Shown: positions 57,101 to 63,986 of the stretch, piece after piece
Numbering within the stretch: the first letter of the stretch is position 1
Layout: each line of letters opens with the position of its first letter
Assembly: GCA_012026655.1 (NCBI GenBank)
Contig: JAAILG010001228.1
Span: 1 to 64,000, forward strand
Source of the DNA: Hydrolagus affinis
Lineage: Eukaryota
Direction: 5' to 3'
DNA: 64,000 nucleotides
Translations under genes and position numbers: made by a program
Notes under the pieces: generated by a model
Seen by the model: the letters and a program-made list of their open reading frames with translations, nothing else
Told to the model about the DNA's origin: nothing
Databases searched by the model: none

Positions 57101-60100
57101 ATTAATGAAAAATATCTAATTTTTTTCACAAAAATGTAATTTCCTTTAGGCTGGAGGGCAAAGCCAGGAAAGGAAGAAAATAATACGCAGAGGTGATTAT
57201 TACTCCATACAGACCTCATTGATCGTTTCTGCCCTTAAAAAGATGCTTCCTATCGGCTTAAATATGTGCACGGCTGGAGACCAAGAACTCATCTCATTGG
57301 GAAAACTGAGATACAGCATGGCAAGTTCTCTTTTTAGCTCAGTATATTTAGCTCATCTTCACGGTTTCCAGACATAAAAATAGTCTCTTATTGCTTTTGA
57401 GTATTTTGATACATTAACAAAATTCATAATTATGGAAAGGAGTTTAGTCTTTTCTTTCCTAATGTTCCTCCTATTCTTTTGGTGTTTTAAATATGGATTG
57501 CTCCATTTTTTAATGTGATAATATGTTTAAATATTTATGTATTCATTTTAAGCAGCTTTTGAACTGTATTCAGAATATTTTAATATTGCACTGGCATTCC
57601 GCAGAGATTTCAGTAACTGTGCTTCCATCCTTGGGAAGTGCCTCTGTCTTGAACCCTCACTTTCTCTTTAAATCTCACCTAAAAACCTACTTATTCATCC
57701 ACACCAATGGGTACCGGTATTTCCCTCCTACACCACCCCACTCCATTGCTTTACACCCAACACTTCCAGTGTCTTGGGATGTCCTCCAGACATGAAATGG
57801 TTCATGTAAATGCAATTTGTTGATGATGTGAAACATTTGGTGAAGGTCAGATTTTGTTTTCTGTTGTGTTAATTACAATTGTGTTATTCCTATCCACAGA
57901 AAGATACAGATGAGGAGGTTAAACAGTTCCTTGCAAATAATCTGCACCTACAGGAAAAGGTATACAAATCTGTTACCATTTTGATGCATGTTAAATCCTG
58001 CATTTCCAGATGTATTATGTTCTAGGGTTGGAAGTGATATTACACATTATGTTTAATTTTTCCTTTAATTGCTTGATGATATGCTATTCTTGTGTAACTG
58101 ATTTTTCCATCTCCCATTCAGTCTGAAGACCCAGCTGTTCGATGGCAGCTAAACCTGTACAAGAATATTACCAAACCCGAAGAATTTGTTAATCCTGAAA
58201 AGATTGTAGAGCGAGTGCAAAAGATTTCAGCCGCCGTCTACCACTTGGAACAGGTAAAATAATGTCTTGAGACATTGCTAATTGTAAAGGTACTAAAATC
58301 TGTTTAATGAGGTGTCTATTGAATAAACCAACAACCCAGTGTTTTACTGTCTCTATTCCACAGTTAATGATGTGTTTTCTTTAAGGTCGAGCAACCTTTG
58401 AGATCAAAGAAGATTGGATGGCAAAAACTCTTGTCGAAGCAACGCAAAAGAGCTGTGGTTGCCTGCTTCCGAATGGCACCATTATATAACTTGCCAAGGT
58501 AGGAGTGGTGCAATATTTTTCTTGGATTCACAAAGAAATCCAACATTGTACATGTTTTGCCCACAAAATGTATAGTCAATTCACTGTACGGTATATCCTG
58601 TGAAACGCTTTGAGACGTTGTGAAGGCATGTACCAGCAATTAGCAATTAGCGATGTACCAGCAATTATCACCTTGGTTCGTTTTAAAAACTCCAGCTAGC
58701 TTGTTTTTTAAAAAAAATTATTACAATTGCAGCTTATATATGAAAGTTTATAGTGGATGTCAGCAAACAGTAAAATTACATTTTTGGAGCACCTTTCACA
58801 TTGGGAGAACGTCCCATGGCGCTGGATATGTCTCTATTTATAGTTTATTAATTTACCGACTTGATCTTTATTGATTTAGTTTTCTTCCTTACCCACCCCC
58901 ATCTTCAAAAGCATGAAATTAACTATTCCCTATTAAAGAGGGTGAATAATCAACCCGATTCCAAGCCTTTGCCACTTGGTTAGTGCTCACTGAGAAGTAC
59001 TCAACAGGCTTGTTTAGTCATTGTGCTCCACTCCTCCTTAGAGGGTTGTGCATTAGTTTTGTTTGGCAATAAATGTGTTCCTGCTCTTCACAGCCAGGTC
59101 AATGTTAGGAACTCGTACAGAAAATTGCTTTGGAAATCCACAGCCTCTTTGTTCAATTATATTAATAGATTTGCTAACAGAGTTTATGTTAGTCTCTACA
59201 TTTTAATAAATATAATCGTGAAAATTTATTTTGCAGGTACTGCATTACACTGTACCCACATCTGTGTACTTTCAAAAACAATTCCAACAAATAATTGCTT
59301 AAACATTTAATCCAAGAATTCAATTAATTGACAAATTCTTATGTCATTAATAATGACGTAAAAAAAACTATTAAAGGAACTGTGCTATTAATTGACAATA
59401 CATTGAGGTTCCAAATCTACACCAACAAAGCTATGCTTTTGAGTTCAATGCAAAAAAAAACATTATTCGTTTTCCCTTAGACACAAAATTAACAATTACT
59501 TCCTGATCTCCTATCAACATCTTTGGCTGGAAAGTGTATATAAGAAAACTGACTTTGAGAAGCGTATTTTCTATTTGACGGTAACGTAACTATTGAAACT
59601 ACCTCCTCTCCTTTACAAACCTTGTCCTCAATAATTCCTCCACTGTGCTCCTTACACCAGTTTGTGTAATGTATCAATTGTACAGAATCTGATTGGTCAG
59701 TCTCCCCCCCCATGAGCAAAATTCTAGTTGTAACAAATGCAGAAATATTATATAAGGAAAAAGGAATGAATCTCTGTCCTGTTTAGAAGATTTTCCAGTA
59801 ACCATGTTTGTTCAGATATGATAAAGGAATTCCAAGTAGGAATAGCCATTTTTTTTTGATGATCCCATATGTGTGTGTGAAAGCTCACAAAACACATAGT
59901 CACTGCACTTCACGGTATATCTTGTGAAGCACTTTGAGACATGTTCCCAATGCAAAAAGTGCTAGATGAACATTTCTGGAGGCTGGTGTACATCACAACT
60001 AAAAACTTTCTACAACTGGAAAAGAGTCTTGTTAAGTCATTGTTCATTTTAGGATAGCATTCTTGCTTTTTGGTGTCTAAAACAACTTTCCGATTCATAT

Positions 60101-63100
60101 TGCCTTTTATTCATCATGAAAAAGTATTCTTTACCTAGATGAATGTGATCATGACAAACCTTTGACCAATCGGAGGACTGGAATTGTACAAAACGCTACT
60201 AATGGTCCTTGTCCGTTGACATAACAATGTTGTTATTAATCTACTAAAGTGTGTATCTCCTCCTTCCTTCTGATCTTCCTGTCCCCTCCAACTCCCTAGG
60301 CATCGGGGTGTTAACCTCTTTCTTCAGAGTTATCAGAAATCATGGATAGAGACAGAGGAGTACACATTTGAGGAGAAACTAATTGAGGATTTAGCTGTAA
60401 GTACTGGCCTCTGTGCACGGCTTCCGCCTCCAGCACACATGGCCATACTGCATTCTGCATTCTGTTGCCAAGCTGTCTACATCGCTTACCACTTCTATGT
60501 CTGTCAATTAGAGTAGGTTGATTGGGAGTTGGTGGGGAAGGGGAGCCCCGTTTGTCTATTCTGCTGCTGCTTTGCACTGGCCATTAAAATGAAACTAATT
60601 ATTGGCCACTGGCCCTTTTGAATGGAAAGAATTTTTCACCTGATCATTCTAGCTGATATTAGCTTCCCTTTAGCACAGTACAATATTTGAAAGATATTGC
60701 CTCTTAAGTACTTCAATGAAAAGAGCAGAAATGTTATAACCTTAGCAGTTTCCTGACAGTGGATAGCACATATGAAGATCCAGCAGTAAATACAATAGTA
60801 TGAAGTAAATCATTTACAGTTGATATTCCTAGTTTGGCTATGAAGCCGCATTGTATATCATAGATATTCAGGCATTTACATCACAGTGCAGCATATTACT
60901 AAGAATTAATTGTGATGAATGCTAACAAATGATATAGGAACGCCATCTCACATAATGGATCAGCAGGGTATGTTATAGGGTCTAAGAGAAGGGGTGGGGG
61001 ATAATGTGATGTGCTGAGCTTTCAGAGTCAAACGCAAGCAGTTCATACCAAGGTCATCCAAATACTGTACACATCATTTGAGCCTTGTAACAAGCTCTTG
61101 AGGCATCTGTTAGCTTATTCTGCAATGCAATAGAACCTCACTTTGTTGTCCCTTCAATTATTAGGAGAAATTATGACAGTACAGTATGCAGGCTGCTTTT
61201 TAGTGGGTGTAAAACTGTGGGTGATCAAAATCCCACCCTCACTATTATGGGCAAATCAAGTTAGTCTACTGACTGCCGTTGATAGTGAACTTCAATTTTA
61301 ATTTGTTTTTGAGCTGCAAATTTCACTGAAGCTGTTTATGAGTCTAGGCTGTGCTTGTATGCTTCACTATGGTTGCCGAATGTGGTGGAAATAAGTGCAC
61401 AGATTATTAGGCAATTTACAAACATCATTACTGAAAATTTGATTTGGAAGGATTATTGCATGGAATCTTAAAACAGATTTTTGAACATATCTGATAATTT
61501 ATCAGATTATGGAGGTAAATTTTATTTCATATCGCCTGGTGTTATTGGGTTATGGCAATAGAGACATTCTATCCTGGAATTTACAATGTTCAAAAGTATT
61601 ACTGTGTAATCAAAGATAATAAGGTGAGGCAAATGCTACATGGTTTAAGGATAGCATCGGTCACTACGAGTGGAGTGTAATAAATGATTCATGATGTCTG
61701 GTTTCTATGATTCCATGTTATACTTAGTGCCCCTCCTCAGATCAGATAAGTTGTAATATTGTCAACATCCACAGGCTACATTGTTCTGTCTTTCAAATAG
61801 AATGCTAAAGTTTGAAGGTGGAAATAAAAGTATGAAAATAAAAACAATACTATTTATTGACATCATTCAATTGAAAAGTTTAATTAATTAACTTGTCTTG
61901 ATCAAATGAGCCGATTGAAAAGGCCAGGTGAGTTCCTACAGTTCAGAGCATAATGCCAAAAGTAAACGAACAGTAAATTTGTTAATACAGTATATAATAA
62001 TGAAATACTTTTGTATTGGATTTGCTGAATCACACACACATTTTTCTTCTGTTAGAAAGCTTGGCAACTACATTGTGAGGCTTCATTTTGTACAGAAGTC
62101 ATTTTTGATCATTCTTCAAGGAGATAAGGTTATCAGCTTTTGAAGGTGAAAAGGAATAACATTCTGTTGTCTTTTTCACTACTTATCTGGACTCTTGTTC
62201 TTTACTCAGTACTGCTCTGTTTCATCAATTCTGCCAATTTATTATTAAACTGTGTTACATCTAACATGAGCATGCAATTCACAGATAACCTTTTCAAAAT
62301 GCATTCATTTATTCATAAGTTTAGTTAGAAATTCAATACTGAATGGTAATGCATTTACTTAAATTCACAAAGAAAACTGTTAACAATGGCAAATTCTTCA
62401 ATCTGTAAATTTGTGATGACAATTTTTTTTACCTTTTTAAACATAATGCAGGGATGTTTATTGTACTGTACTAATTATCTAAAATAAGACTAACATTAGT
62501 TTATAAGTGATACTAATGGTTTCTTAAACCTGACTTCTACTAAATGGTTATACATACTTGCATAACATTGTATTATATTGTAAAATATAATTTTAAACAT
62601 CTGAATGTATGTAGAAATCTGTTACAAAGTCAGAAGAAGAGGAAGAGAATGACAAGAAACCTGACCCGCTTCATCAGCTCATACTACACTTCAGTTGTAT
62701 TGCCCTCACTGAAAGGAGGTACTTTTATACACCATTTCATAATCTTATCCTCAACAACAACAGAATTACATTATAGAGCCCTTTCACGTCGGGAGGACGT
62801 TCCAAGGTGCCCAACAGTCAGGGGTTGGGAACTGAGCATGGGGGAGGGGCATGGTAGGGGTGAGGGGAGGTAGAGAAGTGGGAGGGCAGCTGAAGGCTGG
62901 GTCGAAAAGGAGGTTCTTGAGATCGGCCTTGAAGGAGGCAAGGGAGGAAGTGAGGCTGAGGGACTGTGGGACAGAGTTCCAGAGTGCGGGGGCAGAGAAG
63001 CTGAAAGCCTGGCCACTGATGGTCAGGCAGAGACAAGGAGCAGACTGGAGCCCGCTGAATGGAAGGAACGGTCAGGTTGGCAGGGAGTCAGCAGGTCAGA

Positions 63101-63986
63101 GAGATAGGTGGGGGCAAGGCCATGGTTGGCCTTGAAAGTGAGAACCTTGAATTCTATCCTCTGGCCTTTGTGTTTAATGTCAATACATTAGCCACATTTG
63201 GGGATGTTCAGCAAATCATTCAGCAATAGAAAGAGAAAGATTAGGTAATATTTTAGCTGGTAATATTCCAGAACTGGAACAATTGGGCAAGGTGAATCCC
63301 ATTGCCAAGAGCAAAAACAACAGAATTACATGTGTAGAGCGCCTTTCATGTCAGGAGGACTCCCAAGGCACTGAAAGCAATTAGGAAGAAGTCAAAAATT
63401 CCAACCCTCTATTTACATTGTATCTTATCTGTTTAGAGTTGGTCACAAAGCTGAACTGGAATTTACACATTTATTAAATCAATTACAGTATTTAACTTTC
63501 AAATTAATCAATCACATCATATTTCTCATAACTGCTCAAATAACACAAAGTTGCAGGTCAAATAAATTTTGTGGGGTGAAAATAGAAGATACAAAGGGAG
63601 GGAGAGAGGGAATGAGAAAAATTCCAGACTCTGGAAGTTTTTCTCAGTCCCTTCCTCCCTTTGTATCTTATATTTTCACCAATTATTTTTTTGATGTGAC
63701 CTGCAACTTTGTGTTATTTAATTAGTTTTAGAAAAAATTCTTAAGTTTCTTTCAGGATTGAAGTTGAGAATAGCAAGTTAATATATAATGTTACTCCAGA
63801 TTCCAAACAATGTCTTCTTTCTCAAATGGTTATGGTTTCTACAAGGTAATTAGACAGCAGTTTACTTTAAACCCAAATAAAGTATTTTTTTTTAATTGTC
63901 GATATTTGAATGCTACTCTCTAAACCTTTTGCAGTGCAATTGAAGAAGATGGATTATACATGGCATATGTTGAGATGATGTCAAAG
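55..63986 (+). CDS. RYR3: Ryanodine receptor (RyR3-like), multi-exon partial CDS; 72 coding segments, gene continues beyond both window ends
   Basis: Spliced translation gives continuous RyR sequence with consistent phases. RyR3-type signatures: [28 protein letters not shown] (RyR1/2 have HGHMDECLT), [30 protein letters not shown]. Confidence 0.9.
645..738 (+). CDS. RYR3: RyR exon w2 (MIR)
   Basis: [22 protein letters not shown]; AG/GT. Confidence 0.93.
929..1003 (+). CDS. RYR3: RyR exon w3 (MIR)
   Basis: [24 protein letters not shown]; AG/GT. Confidence 0.93.
1483..1639 (+). CDS. RYR3: RyR exon w4 (MIR)
   Basis: [23 protein letters not shown]; AG/GT. Confidence 0.94.
1803..1920 (+). mobile_element. 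SINE 3' fragment
   Basis: CACTTTACAGTAGATTCTATGAAG..ATCAAATGCAAGGATT. Confidence 0.7.
2007..2171 (+). CDS. RYR3: RyR exon w5 (MIR)
   Basis: [30 protein letters not shown]; AG/GT. Confidence 0.92.
2318..2590 (+). mobile_element. Ancient LF-SINE-like relic
   Basis: TAGCTCAGTTGG head and CTGGGCAAGGGGAAGGG..CTATCTTATGACCTCTGCGGAAAAGTGC..GGGTAAGGATAGG..GGCTGTGAT similar to LF-SINE body (recalled). Confidence 0.4.
3030..3151 (+). CDS. RYR3: RyR exon w6
   Basis: [25 protein letters not shown]; AG/GT. Confidence 0.94.
3926..4109 (+). CDS. RYR3: RyR exon w7 (RIH/N-terminal solenoid)
   Basis: [23 protein letters not shown]; AG/GT. Confidence 0.93.
6436..6571 (+). CDS. RYR3: RyR exon w8
   Basis: [22 protein letters not shown]; AG/GT. 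Confidence 0.94.
7271..7366 (+). CDS. RYR3: RyR exon w9
   Basis: [31 protein letters not shown]; AG/GT. Confidence 0.95.
7717..7835 (+). CDS. RYR3: RyR exon w10
   Basis: [25 protein letters not shown]; AG/GT. Confidence 0.95.
8052..8155 (-). mobile_element. SINE 3' fragment with internal 24-bp tandem duplication
   Basis: CTTCACAGAATATACTGTAAAGTG x2 (8082-8105, 8106-8129). Confidence 0.75.
8358..8491 (+). CDS. RYR3: RyR exon w11
   Basis: [29 protein letters not shown]; AG/GT. Confidence 0.95.
8935..9176 (+). CDS. RYR3: RyR exon w12 (SPRY1)
   Basis: [36 protein letters not shown]; 242 nt; AG/GT. Confidence 0.96.
9381..9573 (+). CDS. RYR3: RyR exon w13 (SPRY1)
   Basis: [40 protein letters not shown]; AG/GT. 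Confidence 0.96.
9696..9788. repeat. Short imperfect inverted repeat (about 30-bp arms)
   Basis: ACATTCCACTTGCTGCCAAGTATAGTGA / TCACTAAACTTAGTGGCAAGTGGAGTGT. Confidence 0.65.
10704..10920 (+). CDS. RYR3: RyR exon w14
   Basis: [29 protein letters not shown]; AG/GT. Confidence 0.95.
12057..12161 (+). CDS. RYR3: RyR exon w15 (Repeat12)
   Basis: [35 protein letters not shown]; AG/GT. Confidence 0.95.
12991..13094 (+). CDS. RYR3: RyR exon w16 (Repeat12)
   Basis: [30 protein letters not shown]; AG/GT. Confidence 0.95.
13192..13275 (+). CDS. RYR3: RyR exon w17
   Basis: [27 protein letters not shown]; preceded by 97-nt intron. Confidence 0.93.
14236..14395 (+). CDS. RYR3: RyR exon w18 (Repeat12)
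   Basis: [36 protein letters not shown]; AG/GT. Confidence 0.96.
15078..15225 (+). CDS. RYR3: RyR exon w19
   Basis: [24 protein letters not shown]; AG/GT. Confidence 0.95.
15739..15944 (+). CDS. RYR3: RyR exon w20 (SPRY2)
   Basis: [29 protein letters not shown]; AG/GT. Confidence 0.94.
18073..18247 (+). CDS. RYR3: RyR exon w21 (SPRY2)
   Basis: [29 protein letters not shown]; AG/GT. Confidence 0.95.
18365..18470 (+). mobile_element. SINE 3' fragment
   Basis: TACAGTCAATTCACTTTACAGTATATTCT..ATCAAATGCTAGGATTATTAT. Confidence 0.75.
18938..19146 (+). CDS. RYR3: RyR exon w22
   Basis: [36 protein letters not shown]; AG/GT. Confidence 0.95.
19476..19690 (+). CDS. RYR3: RyR exon w23 (SPRY3 start / D2 divergent region)
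   Basis: [26 protein letters not shown]; donor ag|gtgagt, ends phase 2. Confidence 0.9.
20025..20076 (+). CDS. RYR3: RyR exon w24 (52-nt D2-region exon)
   Basis: ctccttag|..|gtaatg; (R)[17 protein letters not shown]; restores phase 2 to 0 and yields TTM-YYYSV like RyR TTTYYYSV. Confidence 0.78.
20431..20591 (+). CDS. RYR3: RyR exon w25 (SPRY3)
   Basis: [34 protein letters not shown]; AG/GT. Confidence 0.95.
21125..21143 (+). promoter_or_regulatory. Candidate CTCF motif
   Basis: CCACAAGAGGGCGT matches the CCACNAGRGGGCG core; motif only. Confidence 0.3.
21470..21635 (+). CDS. RYR3: RyR exon w26 (SPRY3)
   Basis: [22 protein letters not shown]; AG/GT. Confidence 0.94.
21640..21970 (-). mobile_element. 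tRNA-derived SINE, full length, diverged
   Basis: Same head, body and tail in reverse orientation; tail abuts the exon w26 donor. Confidence 0.8.
23639..23725 (+). CDS. RYR3: RyR exon w27
   Basis: [29 protein letters not shown]; AG/GT. Confidence 0.95.
24772..24998 (+). CDS. RYR3: RyR exon w28
   Basis: [32 protein letters not shown]; AG/GT. Confidence 0.95.
25745..26552 (+). CDS. RYR3: RyR exon w29 (808 nt; handle/junctional solenoid incl. acidic D3 region)
   Basis: [42 protein letters not shown]; AG/GT. Confidence 0.96.
27162..27362 (+). CDS. RYR3: RyR exon w30
   Basis: [36 protein letters not shown]; AG/GT. Confidence 0.96.
27755..27857 (+). CDS. RYR3: RyR exon w31
   Basis: [34 protein letters not shown]; AG/GT. 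Confidence 0.94.
29200..29500 (+). mobile_element. Degenerate CR1 ORF2 3' fragment
   Basis: AGAGGAGGTTAGGGGATGTCTTGATT..GGGGCCAT..AGGAAACATTTCTTCAC..TGGAATGCTCT resembles the CR1 RT C-terminal region; disrupted. Confidence 0.55.
29879..30016 (+). CDS. RYR3: RyR exon w32
   Basis: [29 protein letters not shown]; AG/GT. Confidence 0.92.
32160..32284 (+). mobile_element. CR1 LINE 3' terminus
   Basis: GATCAGCCATGATCTTATTAAATGGCGGGGCAGGCTTGAGGGGCCGAATAGCC..CTCCTACTTCTTATGTTCT, typical of chondrichthyan CR1 3' ends (recalled). Confidence 0.75.
32624..32897 (+). CDS. RYR3: RyR exon w33
   Basis: [29 protein letters not shown]; AG/GT. Confidence 0.95.
33182..33296 (+). CDS. RYR3: RyR exon w34 (bridging solenoid)
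   Basis: [33 protein letters not shown]; AG/GT. Confidence 0.96.
33732..33864 (+). CDS. RYR3: RyR exon w35
   Basis: [40 protein letters not shown]; NAGNAG acceptor (could start 33735). Confidence 0.93.
34594..34697 (+). CDS. RYR3: RyR exon w36
   Basis: [25 protein letters not shown]; AG/GT. Confidence 0.95.
34995..35094 (+). mobile_element. SINE 3' fragment
   Basis: Family body plus (ATT)n tail; further fragments at about 26620-26720(-), 28600-28650(-), 53150-53240, 55000-55105, 55320-55405, 58555-58620, 59890-59945. Confidence 0.75.
35477..35612 (+). CDS. RYR3: RyR exon w37
   Basis: [35 protein letters not shown]; AG/GT. Confidence 0.95.
35975..36155 (+). CDS. RYR3: RyR exon w38
   Basis: [37 protein letters not shown]; AG/GT. 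Confidence 0.94.
36439..36532 (+). CDS. RYR3: RyR exon w39
   Basis: [31 protein letters not shown]; AG/GT. Confidence 0.94.
36764..36884 (+). CDS. RYR3: RyR exon w40
   Basis: [36 protein letters not shown]; AG/GT. Confidence 0.95.
36925..37024. other. Assembly gap (100 N) within an intron
   Basis: Run of 100 N followed by a poly-C tract; flanking exons join in phase, so no coding exon seems lost. Confidence 0.98.
37362..37531 (+). CDS. RYR3: RyR exon w41
   Basis: [31 protein letters not shown]; AG/GT. Confidence 0.95.
38100..38320 (+). CDS. RYR3: RyR exon w42
   Basis: [36 protein letters not shown]; AG/GT. Confidence 0.95.
38988..39078 (+). CDS. RYR3: RyR exon w43
   Basis: [30 protein letters not shown]; AG/GT. 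Confidence 0.94.
39309..39326 (+). promoter_or_regulatory. Candidate CTCF motif
   Basis: GCCACTAGGTGTCACC resembles the CTCF core; motif only. Confidence 0.25.
39474..39565 (+). mobile_element. Ancient DeuSINE (Deu-domain) core relic
   Basis: CTGCCTGTTCGGGTGGACGTTAAAGAACCCTTTGGC..GAAGAGTTTCTCCCGGTG resembles the Deu/AmnSINE core (recalled); similar relic at about 16505-16580. Confidence 0.5.
39821..39961 (+). CDS. RYR3: RyR exon w44
   Basis: [36 protein letters not shown]-type motif; AG/GT. Confidence 0.95.
40447..40753 (-). mobile_element. tRNA-derived SINE, near full length
   Basis: Reverse complement of the same family; ends ..CTAACCACTGAGCTACAGGACTCC on +; B-box-like GGATTCGAAC. Confidence 0.85.
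40851..41014 (+). CDS. RYR3: RyR exon w45
   Basis: [32 protein letters not shown]; AG/GT. Confidence 0.94.
41891..41969 (+). CDS. RYR3: RyR exon w46 (Repeat34)
   Basis: [26 protein letters not shown]; AG/GT. Confidence 0.94.
42319..42408 (+). CDS. RYR3: RyR exon w47 (Repeat34)
   Basis: [30 protein letters not shown]; AG/GT. Confidence 0.94.
43120..43257 (+). CDS. RYR3: RyR exon w48 (Repeat34 phosphorylation loop)
   Basis: [35 protein letters not shown]; AG/GT. Confidence 0.94.
43867..43932 (+). CDS. RYR3: RyR exon w49
   Basis: [22 protein letters not shown]; AG/GT. Confidence 0.9.
44459..44534 (+). CDS. RYR3: RyR exon w50
   Basis: [25 protein letters not shown]; AG/GT. Confidence 0.94.
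44811..44934 (+). CDS. RYR3: RyR exon w51
   Basis: [40 protein letters not shown]; AG/GT. Confidence 0.94.
45170..45285 (+). CDS. RYR3: RyR exon w52
   Basis: [21 protein letters not shown]; AG/GT. Confidence 0.94.
45657..45724 (+). CDS. RYR3: RyR exon w53
   Basis: [23 protein letters not shown]; AG/GT. Confidence 0.94.
46197..46318 (+). CDS. RYR3: RyR exon w54
   Basis: [31 protein letters not shown]; AG/GT. Confidence 0.94.
46731..46780 (+). CDS. RYR3: RyR exon w55
   Basis: [16 protein letters not shown]; AG/GT. Confidence 0.93.
47308..47368 (+). CDS. RYR3: RyR exon w56
   Basis: [21 protein letters not shown]; AG/GT. Confidence 0.93.
47513..47751 (+). CDS. RYR3: RyR exon w57
   Basis: [40 protein letters not shown]; AG/GT. 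Confidence 0.95.
48228..48309 (+). CDS. RYR3: RyR exon w58
   Basis: [27 protein letters not shown]; AG/GT. Confidence 0.94.
48752..48910 (+). mobile_element. SINE 3' half
   Basis: TTTGTGGGACACT..CTTTACAGTATATTCTGTGAAGCA..ATCAAATGCAAGGATTATTATT. Confidence 0.8.
49062..49200 (-). mobile_element. SINE 3' half (inverted relative to 48752-48910)
   Basis: ATCCTTGCATTTGATATAGCAC..GTCCCACAAA is the reverse complement of the family body. Confidence 0.8.
49446..49576 (+). CDS. RYR3: RyR exon w59
   Basis: [32 protein letters not shown]; AG/GT. Confidence 0.94.
49945..50263 (+). mobile_element. tRNA-derived SINE, near full length, L2-type 3' tail
   Basis: tRNA-like head GGAGTCCTGTAGCTCAGTGGTTAGAGCA (A box), degenerate B box, body shared with many copies, tail ATCAAATGCAAGGA(TTA)n. 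Confidence 0.85.
50690..51004 (+). CDS. RYR3: RyR exon w60
   Basis: [60 protein letters not shown]; AG/GT. Confidence 0.95.
51170..51500 (+). mobile_element. L2-clade LINE 3' end
   Basis: C-rich body ending GGGACATCCTTCCGATATGAAAGGCATCTTACAAATGTAATTT; shared with several copies. Confidence 0.65.
51562..51802 (+). CDS. RYR3: RyR exon w61 (GC donor)
   Basis: [38 protein letters not shown]; donor ag|gcaagc. Confidence 0.92.
52035..52222. repeat. Near-perfect 188-bp palindrome (fold-back, MER6/V-SINE-tail or Penelope-like)
   Basis: Arms 52035-52122 and 52124-52222 are reverse complements around a single A, apart from an 11-nt insertion and a few mismatches. Confidence 0.9.
52690..52951 (+). 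mobile_element. L2-clade LINE 3' end
   Basis: TTCAAGGCCGGTCTCAAGACC..GGGACGTCCTCCCAACGTGAAAGGCGCTCTATAAATGTAATTTTGTT. Confidence 0.7.
53018..53105 (+). CDS. RYR3: RyR exon w62
   Basis: [29 protein letters not shown]; AG/GT. Confidence 0.94.
53584..53676 (+). CDS. RYR3: RyR exon w63
   Basis: [31 protein letters not shown]; AG/GT. Confidence 0.95.
53920..54684 (+). mobile_element. Non-autonomous pogo/Tigger (Tc1/mariner superfamily) element with large internal inverted repeat
   Basis: TA|CAGTAAAAGCCCATTTATACGG .. ACGGATAAACAGACTTCTACTG|TA imperfect TIRs with TA target duplication; transposase N-terminal relic [22 protein letters not shown] from 54451. Confidence 0.8.
54808..54828 (+). CDS. 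RYR3: Putative 21-nt alternative microexon (ASI-equivalent position), FKRVGLK
   Basis: Long U-rich tract + aacgcag| ttt aaa cga gtt ggc cta aag |gtcaga; phase 0/0; sits between SKMSK and AGGQ where RyR1/RyR3 carry a short alternative exon. Confidence 0.7.
56479..56820 (+). mobile_element. tRNA-derived SINE, full length, diverged
   Basis: GTGTAGCTCAGTGGTTAGAGAACTCGCC head through ATCAAATGCAAAG tail. Confidence 0.82.
57150..57320 (+). CDS. RYR3: RyR exon w65 (GC donor)
   Basis: [40 protein letters not shown]; donor atg|gcaagt; 171 nt. Confidence 0.92.
57900..57959 (+). CDS. RYR3: RyR exon w66
   Basis: [20 protein letters not shown]; AG/GT. Confidence 0.94.
58122..58253 (+). CDS. RYR3: RyR exon w67
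   Basis: [35 protein letters not shown]; AG/GT. Confidence 0.94.
58386..58498 (+). CDS. RYR3: RyR exon w68 (calmodulin-binding domain)
   Basis: [38 protein letters not shown]; AG/GT. Confidence 0.96.
59481..59580 (+). CDS. RYR3: RyR mutually exclusive exon A (100 nt)
   Basis: tttcccttag|..|gtaacg; (R)[33 protein letters not shown]; phase 2 to 0; paralogous to exon B. Confidence 0.85.
60300..60396 (+). CDS. RYR3: RyR mutually exclusive exon B (97 nt, canonical type)
   Basis: ctccctag|..|gtaagt; (R)[32 protein letters not shown]; phase 2 to 0. Confidence 0.93.
62615..62718 (+). CDS. RYR3: RyR exon w70
   Basis: [34 protein letters not shown]; AG/GT. Confidence 0.92.
62750..63150 (-). mobile_element. 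L2-clade LINE 3' end
   Basis: Reverse complement of the 52690-52951 family; other copies at about 1160-1345(+), 16030-16240(-), 30095-30500(-), 45520-45580(+), 52225-52485(+), 57595-57825(+), 63315-63375(-). Confidence 0.7.
63538..63719. repeat. Imperfect 182-bp palindrome (MITE-like)
   Basis: AAATAACACAAAGTTGCAGGTCA..TGACCTGCAACTTTGTGTTATTT; inner AAGATACAAAGGGAGG/CCTCCCTTTGTATCTT; centre TTCCAGA-C-TCTGGAA. Confidence 0.85.
63935..63986 (+). CDS. RYR3: RyR exon w71
   Basis: [18 protein letters not shown]; AG/GT. Confidence 0.92.

Follow-up and report, generated by a model that had tools for sequence, protein, structure and literature searches.

Complementary intronic elements at the mutually exclusive exon pair of a vertebrate RyR3 gene

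The RyR3 exon pair and the loci compared

The stretch of DNA analysed here (the window, 64 kb in full) carries a ryanodine receptor gene on its plus strand. Constitutive exon U (58386..58498, 113 nt), which has AG/GT ends and joins in frame to either A or B, is followed by the mutually exclusive exons A (59481..59580, 100 nt) and B (60300..60396, 97 nt), and the constitutive exon C (62615..62718, 104 nt) lies downstream of this pair, all on the plus strand. A and B are homologous tandem exons of one phase. The U-A-C and U-B-C frames are open; U-A-B-C stops at codon 75, and U-C is frameshifted. In a search of the PDB, the sole match of exon A was the RyR3 chain 9c1e (E 6e-4), and exon B is RyR2/RyR1-like, matching RyR2 and RyR1 chains. 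A tree of 14 rows based on the joined exon stretch groups the window with RyR3 (support 98/97) and places it apart from both the teleost pair and the amniote group. Residues that are common to teleost and amniote RyR3 are absent from exon B of the window, which makes a cartilaginous fish the likely source. The gene is RyR3 with an either-or exon pair, an assignment already made in the preliminary description of this DNA and confirmed by the exon A match, the tree, and the reading frames; the pair is an ancient one.

Elsewhere in the source genome, exon B matched a RyR2-like exon only, and no second copy of exon A was found there. In human RYR3, the same 100-nt and 97-nt exons are mutually exclusive cluster 1006 with tissue-differential use, according to the available parts of PMC5740500; the exon pair is therefore already known. 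Exon B is spliced to exon C at high depth in contig 5 of run X17 from a relative, organism D, a run that may be RNA. The 14 reads obtained from run X21 contained no exon junction. A stretch of 89 nt (63757-63845) that is open, has AG/GT ends, and lies between exon C and the exon after it is possibly a cryptic or poison exon; no RyR protein match was noted for it.

Five loci of real DNA were compared with the window: L004, of amniote type; L005 and L006, both of one teleost type; L007, of a second teleost type; and L008, a RyR2-like control. Exon A was detected in L004, L006, and L007. Closer relatives were organism B (~99% alike and the nearest of them), organisms D and E, and P0001, a read-through ORF of another relative. 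Only three pieces of a 4,471-nt contig of organism E align, namely exon A with its flanks, exon B with its flanks, and 59681-59702. In a contig of organism B, the segment 60777-60961 is joined on the opposite strand, a possible inversion of 185 nt.

A predicted helix over the exon B acceptor

The pyrimidine tract of exon B (60275..60296, plus strand) is complementary to a G-rich element (the G arm, 60524..60545, plus strand) 128 nt after exon B. The best duplex of these two arms, hereafter the masking stem, comprises 20 bp at -36.7 kcal/mol; around a perfect 9-bp core it has two G-U pairs and two 1x1 mismatches. The pyrimidine tract is covered to within 3 nt of the exon B start (60300). A 19-bp bulged register, the form in which this stem was first described, is near-equivalent (-32.9 kcal/mol on its exact coordinates). 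On the sense strand of the window the arms are mutual best partners (-36.7, next -29.2; -35.0, next -32.3). When the 43 acceptors of the gene were compared, that of exon B reached 77% of a perfect duplex within 500 nt, and the other 42 reached 29-57% (-8.4 to -19.7 kcal/mol). None of 150 shuffles of the downstream 300 nt matched the energy of the masking duplex. The complementarity of the two arms, as originally claimed, therefore stands. Against this, the 301-nt region taken as a whole is no more stable than its shuffles (z -0.81, 21/100), a measure judged uninformative.

The helix has a probability of 1.0 in folds of at most 700 nt, or when the pair span is limited to 500 or 300 nt; in five ~1-kb folds without a span limit it drops to 0.00. 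Forcing it in a ~1-kb fold costs only 6 of 255 kcal/mol. In these models, the pyrimidine tract is thus covered by a helix whose stability exceeds chance and whose appearance depends on the fold window. In long folds, a local hairpin arm at 60487-60497 captures the G arm (0.66), and organism D has deletions within this hairpin arm at 60492 and 60495.

One explanation of the locus is that exon B is repressed in this lineage mainly by a functional masking stem, with a second stem inside the A-B intron (S1-D, described below) being secondary. The position of exon B as an extreme outlier among the 43 acceptors suits this explanation. A shuffle test, in which the acceptor tract was paired with the 300 nt that follow exon B, was run on L004, L006, L007, and L008 (L005 was not run separately). 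By this test the stem is absent in L004 (67/150 shuffles as good) and L006 (107/150), and L007 retains a borderline trace (12/150) that may be counted in its favour; the RyR2-like control L008 gave 98/150. Among the closer relatives, the pyrimidine tract is free of gaps in organisms D and E, and the change C60294T, found in organisms B and E, retains a U-G pair. On the other side, organism B carries G60535A, which breaks one pair and weakens the duplex from -36.7 to -26.9 kcal/mol, still stronger than at the other 42 acceptors. Organisms D and E both have A60290C in the masking arm, and the G arm of organism E has no alignment in its contig. The piece of organism D that spans the G arm (60519-60635) differs at 7 positions, 4 of which lie near contig ends. 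The abundant splicing of exon B in run X17 also speaks against this explanation.

P0001 provides evidence in both directions. Its homologous register is the best pairing of 202 (31 of 13,904 null registers are as good), and the pairing includes one codon-fixed C-G to A-U change. Covariation was suggested by a first cross test (-32.0 vs -25.7 and -19.9) in which one side was fixed; this candidate signal failed once both sides were free. In the fair test, the cognate pairing (-32.0) is no better than the cross with the window G peptide (-34.6), the other cross giving -23.3, and the cognate pair is not favoured. Codon compatibility over 11 nt, checked on 40 read-through ORFs, was a test without power, and teleost-type ORFs lent it no support; a reverse-strand ORF search for the G arm of relatives found nothing. 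Taken with both sides of this evidence, a masking stem that dominates exon choice in this lineage is an unlikely explanation.

The masking stem is not deeply conserved, being absent in L004 and L006, borderline in L007, and short of one pair in organism B, and the fair cross test did not bear out compensatory change. As a stem that would hide the acceptor, it is non-random in this lineage but missing from those two loci and from the unrestricted ~1-kb folds. The aligned sequences are compatible with conservation of the masking stem in this lineage and with its confinement to part of the vertebrate tree. In L007 (1418-1440), TTGGGAG and GGTGGGGA motifs some 105 nt past exon B resemble the G arm of the window; the fold pairs them to the acceptor tract (0.96-0.97), and they may be a remnant of the masking stem.

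The predicted S1-D stem inside the A-B intron

A second pair of complementary elements, absent from the preliminary description, lies entirely within the A-B intron. Its 5' arm, S1 (59688..59700, plus strand), starts exactly at +108 from exon A in the window, L004, and L007, and is identical at 13/13 positions in all three. S1 was chosen by conservation first and its partner was sought afterwards. The surrounding block, 59681-59702, is the only part of this intron beyond the splice-site regions that aligns in organism E (22/22). In 128 kb (both strands of the window), the best partner of S1 is 60162-60174 in the same intron (-22.6 kcal/mol, next -19.9). This 3' arm, D (60162..60174, plus strand), precedes the branch-point region of exon B and is 137, 118, and 205 nt upstream of exon B in the window, L004, and L007, respectively; it is kept in L004 and L007 and diverged in L006.

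In each of these three loci, 0/100 shuffles pair as well as S1 with D. Pairing is preserved in 38 of 39 cells (13 pairs in 3 loci), with a single break at an end pair. One-sided U-G/U-A changes at two inner pairs preserve the pairing; A-to-G changes are generally common. Since S1 is invariant in the three loci, S1-D has no two-sided compensatory change. Organism D is unchanged over 60142-60180, compared with 17 changed positions in 60131-60251. Furthermore, D is encodable in the upstream read-through of 11/16 RyR3-type ORFs (with at least 38 upstream residues) and of 0/21 RyR1/RyR2-type ORFs. Allowing 2 mismatches, the S1 13-mer has 3 matches in the window, which is the chance level (43/100 shuffles), so the evidence for S1 lies in its position and conservation and not in that count. 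No Rfam match was found in 58400-62800.

S1-D has a probability of 0.95-1.0 in 5/6 unrestricted folds of the window region; when L004 and L007 are folded without restriction, their probable long-range helices do not include it. The extended duplex reaches -39.3 kcal/mol in L004, with a long outer helix, and -31.5 in the window, where a possible outer-helix 3' arm (60182..60191, plus strand, pairing with 59675-59684) is weak, at a probability of 0.57 for 5 bp. With a pair span of 500 nt, S1-D and the masking stem form together as adjoining, non-competing helices. In a 300-nt-span fold S1, which is partly self-complementary, takes up a local hairpin (0.78). This small hairpin (59689-59700 in the window; 2057-2068 in L004) has a UUGG loop, and D of L004 (2893-2904) forms a matching hairpin with a CCAA loop. 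Contact between the loops of the S1 and D hairpins could nucleate the long-range helix. A high-copy short repeat (59872-59965, depth 10^4-10^5) lies inside the S1-D loop, and text resembling it occurs near 58560-58630 and 62770-62810.

The first teleost type is less clear. L006 has a recognisable D and no exact S1; its D finds its best partners elsewhere (-19.6 and -19.3 kcal/mol), the S1-like place ranking third (-16.4), and possible two-sided S1-D changes in this locus rest on uncertain homology. L005 matches L006 from the S1-like region onward, and at least 1.8 kb upstream (L005 1-1820) is unrelated sequence in place of exon A, the replacement being an insertion or an assembly difference. 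From the comparison across loci as a whole, S1-D is put forward as a predicted structure at this exon pair that is deeply conserved, from fishes to land vertebrates.

S1 and D might instead be kept as motifs, either opposite CCAAT boxes or protein sites in RNA, with their complementarity a by-product. CCAAT, which we take to be an NF-Y type box acting on DNA, is present on opposite strands in the two arms in the window and L004, and in L007 another intact copy occurs 30 nt past D. The invariance and partial self-complementarity of S1 would also fit such a role. However, D reads CCAGT in L007, L005, and L006; the pentamer is broken and the pair is kept in L007 as U-G, which argues against a CCAAT box. 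The continuation of the L004 duplex into its long outer helix is a further point against it, and the fixed 108-nt distance from the exon A donor points to splicing. We regard conservation of S1 and D as motifs as improbable.

Another possibility is that both stems are incidental and that exclusivity arises from splice-site strength, splicing factors, and frameshift decay alone. Double inclusion and double skipping of A and B each break the frame, and 60% of human mutually exclusive clusters have lengths not divisible by three, a figure from the available portion of Hatje et al. that can be counted for this possibility. It nevertheless leaves unexplained why two complementary blocks are kept in the otherwise unalignable introns of three lineages, and there is very little reason to think it correct.

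The preliminary description had proposed a competing selector, in which the G arm acts as a docking site that pairs with either the exon B tract or a C-run after exon A (59702..59713, plus strand), and the competition picks the exon. Both G-arm duplexes can form, and the C-run pairing exists as it was written, but it is weak (-16.4 kcal/mol), and many pyrimidine tracts of the window pair far better with the G arm. A pyrimidine-rich tract after exon A (59610..59655, plus strand, -31.5 kcal/mol) can also take the G arm in some long folds, with a probability of 0.01-0.58 depending on the fold limits. The C-run pairing prevails (0.99) in 1/5 long folds, the one omitting 59581-59659. Conservation does not extend to the C-run, which is missing in L004 and L007, lies beyond the conserved block of organism E, whose alignment ends at 59702, and in organism D is truncated at 59709; L004 and L006 also have no G-arm partner. 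In addition, the C-run is located inside the loop of the conserved S1-D stem, with which its pairing is incompatible. Both G-arm pairings enclose exon B, so that exchanging them would presumably not select between A and B.

Insect Dscam and 14-3-3 resemble RyR3 in having long-range intronic pairing at tandem duplicated exons, and differ in their competition, with one site and one partner per exon (PMC6071210, in the parts available). At the RyR3 pair, no single docking site with a conserved partner for each exon was found, and 18 tests on 3 loci revealed no shared second partner for S1 or D. Isolated second-partner matches occur at different places. L004 has an extra S1 partner about 1,750 nt before exon A (101-130, -16.9 kcal/mol, 0/60 shuffles) that was not seen in the window. 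Teleost-type RyR3 conserves an intronic block some 170-210 nt beyond exon B (L007 1505-1535, L006 1665-1700) that holds (T)GCATG, an Rbfox-type motif; in L007 this block pairs with S1 (-18.8 kcal/mol, 2/150 shuffles) and would loop out B. No (T)GCATG was found after exon B in the window or L004. The competing docking switch thus fails on the absence of a conserved C-run and on the looping out of B by both pairings, and we consider it very improbable.

Branch points and a model for exon choice

An ACUAAU element (60198..60203, plus strand) follows just after D. It is a branch-point-like motif of the SF1/QKI type and is unchanged in organism D. A second ACUAA (60243..60247, plus strand), with the last upstream AG at -52, is the likely branch point of exon B and also occurs in the loose end of organism E. 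An ACTAAY is found downstream of D in the window, L004, L005, and L006 and is lacking there in L007 and L008. At ACUAA branch sites SF1 competes with QKI, and repression is favoured where such sites are dual (PMC13004596, as far as the available text goes); the window carries two. The A-B intron measures 719 nt, and closure of S1-D would leave ~110-155 nt from the donor to the candidate branch points. Steric exclusion of A/B joining was considered and rejected, since its criterion is a distance between donor and branch point of under ~50 nt and the remaining stretch is too long.

FGFR2 offers the closest layout. Both arms of its IAS2-ISAR (IAS3) stem, as with S1-D, lie in the intron between mutually exclusive exons, and minigenes showed that the stem activates IIIb and represses IIIc (PMC2471395, PMC9198270, in the portions available). 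There, the adjacent element consists of GCAUG sites, whereas that of RyR3 is of ACUAA type, and the RyR3 bridge is a predicted one. In human ATE1, R3 between the exons pairs with R4 before the second exon, as S1 does with D; ATE1 also has R1 before its first exon (PMC7797038, in the part available). A counterpart of R1 before exon A of RyR3 was not found, 103, 100, and 142 of 150 shuffles being as good in the window, L004, and L007, respectively. The masking stem resembles known exon loop-out and acceptor-blocking stems, with chicken beta-tropomyosin exon 6B as an example, in enclosing the alternative exon and covering the pyrimidine tract, and in human genes pyrimidine tracts overlapped by complementary regions are reported to be common (PMC9198270, PMC8052449, in the sections available). 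The RyR3 masking stem is predicted and limited to part of the vertebrate tree, in which its setting differs from these precedents.

On the basis of the FGFR2-like layout and the ACUAA that follows D, S1-D is taken as a bridge favouring A and restraining B. We lean towards a model in which the choice between A and B is tuned by this bridge, with the masking stem adding a brake on B in this lineage. S1-D would form in the pre-mRNA, loop out ~460 nt, and bring the ACUAA after D to within ~110 nt of the exon A donor. By analogy with IAS2-ISAR, from which the direction of the effect is taken, it would favour A and restrain the branch point of B. A candidate tissue switch is SF1/QKI competition for the ACUAA elements. 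Closure of the masking stem would have to wait until ~230 further nt have been transcribed, and the stem could act as a kinetically gated brake, so that B would be included when its acceptor is recognised before this delayed closure. Decay of frameshifted transcripts would enforce the remaining exclusivity.

The broader form of this model, in which an RNA bridge in RYR3 across jawed vertebrates, probably including human, sets tissue A/B choice via ACUAA, with the masking stem added in this lineage, is a serious but tentative possibility, to which we give somewhat less than even weight. The human S1-D pair may already be contained, unstudied, in the human catalogue of 916,360 PCCR pairs of PMC8052449. 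The searched parts of PMC5740500 and its supplement describe no RNA structure for RYR3, and a literature search limited to accessible papers found neither an RNA structure at this exon pair nor a control mechanism for its exon choice.

The choice between the two RYR3 exons exchanges 32-33 residues of a calcium-release channel and, according to the available text of PMC5740500, differs between human tissues. In the literature as far as it was accessible, few vertebrate either-or exons have a worked-out structural mechanism, FGFR2, ATE1, and beta-tropomyosin among them. Mechanisms of this kind are already known, and the gain would be a new testable case and no new principle. Two 13-nt arms at fixed positions represent a small, direct target for mutants and antisense oligonucleotides and mark where deep-intronic variants could be sought. 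If the model is true, the locus would offer a natural case in which an ancient splicing switch has gained or lost a surrounding structural layer.
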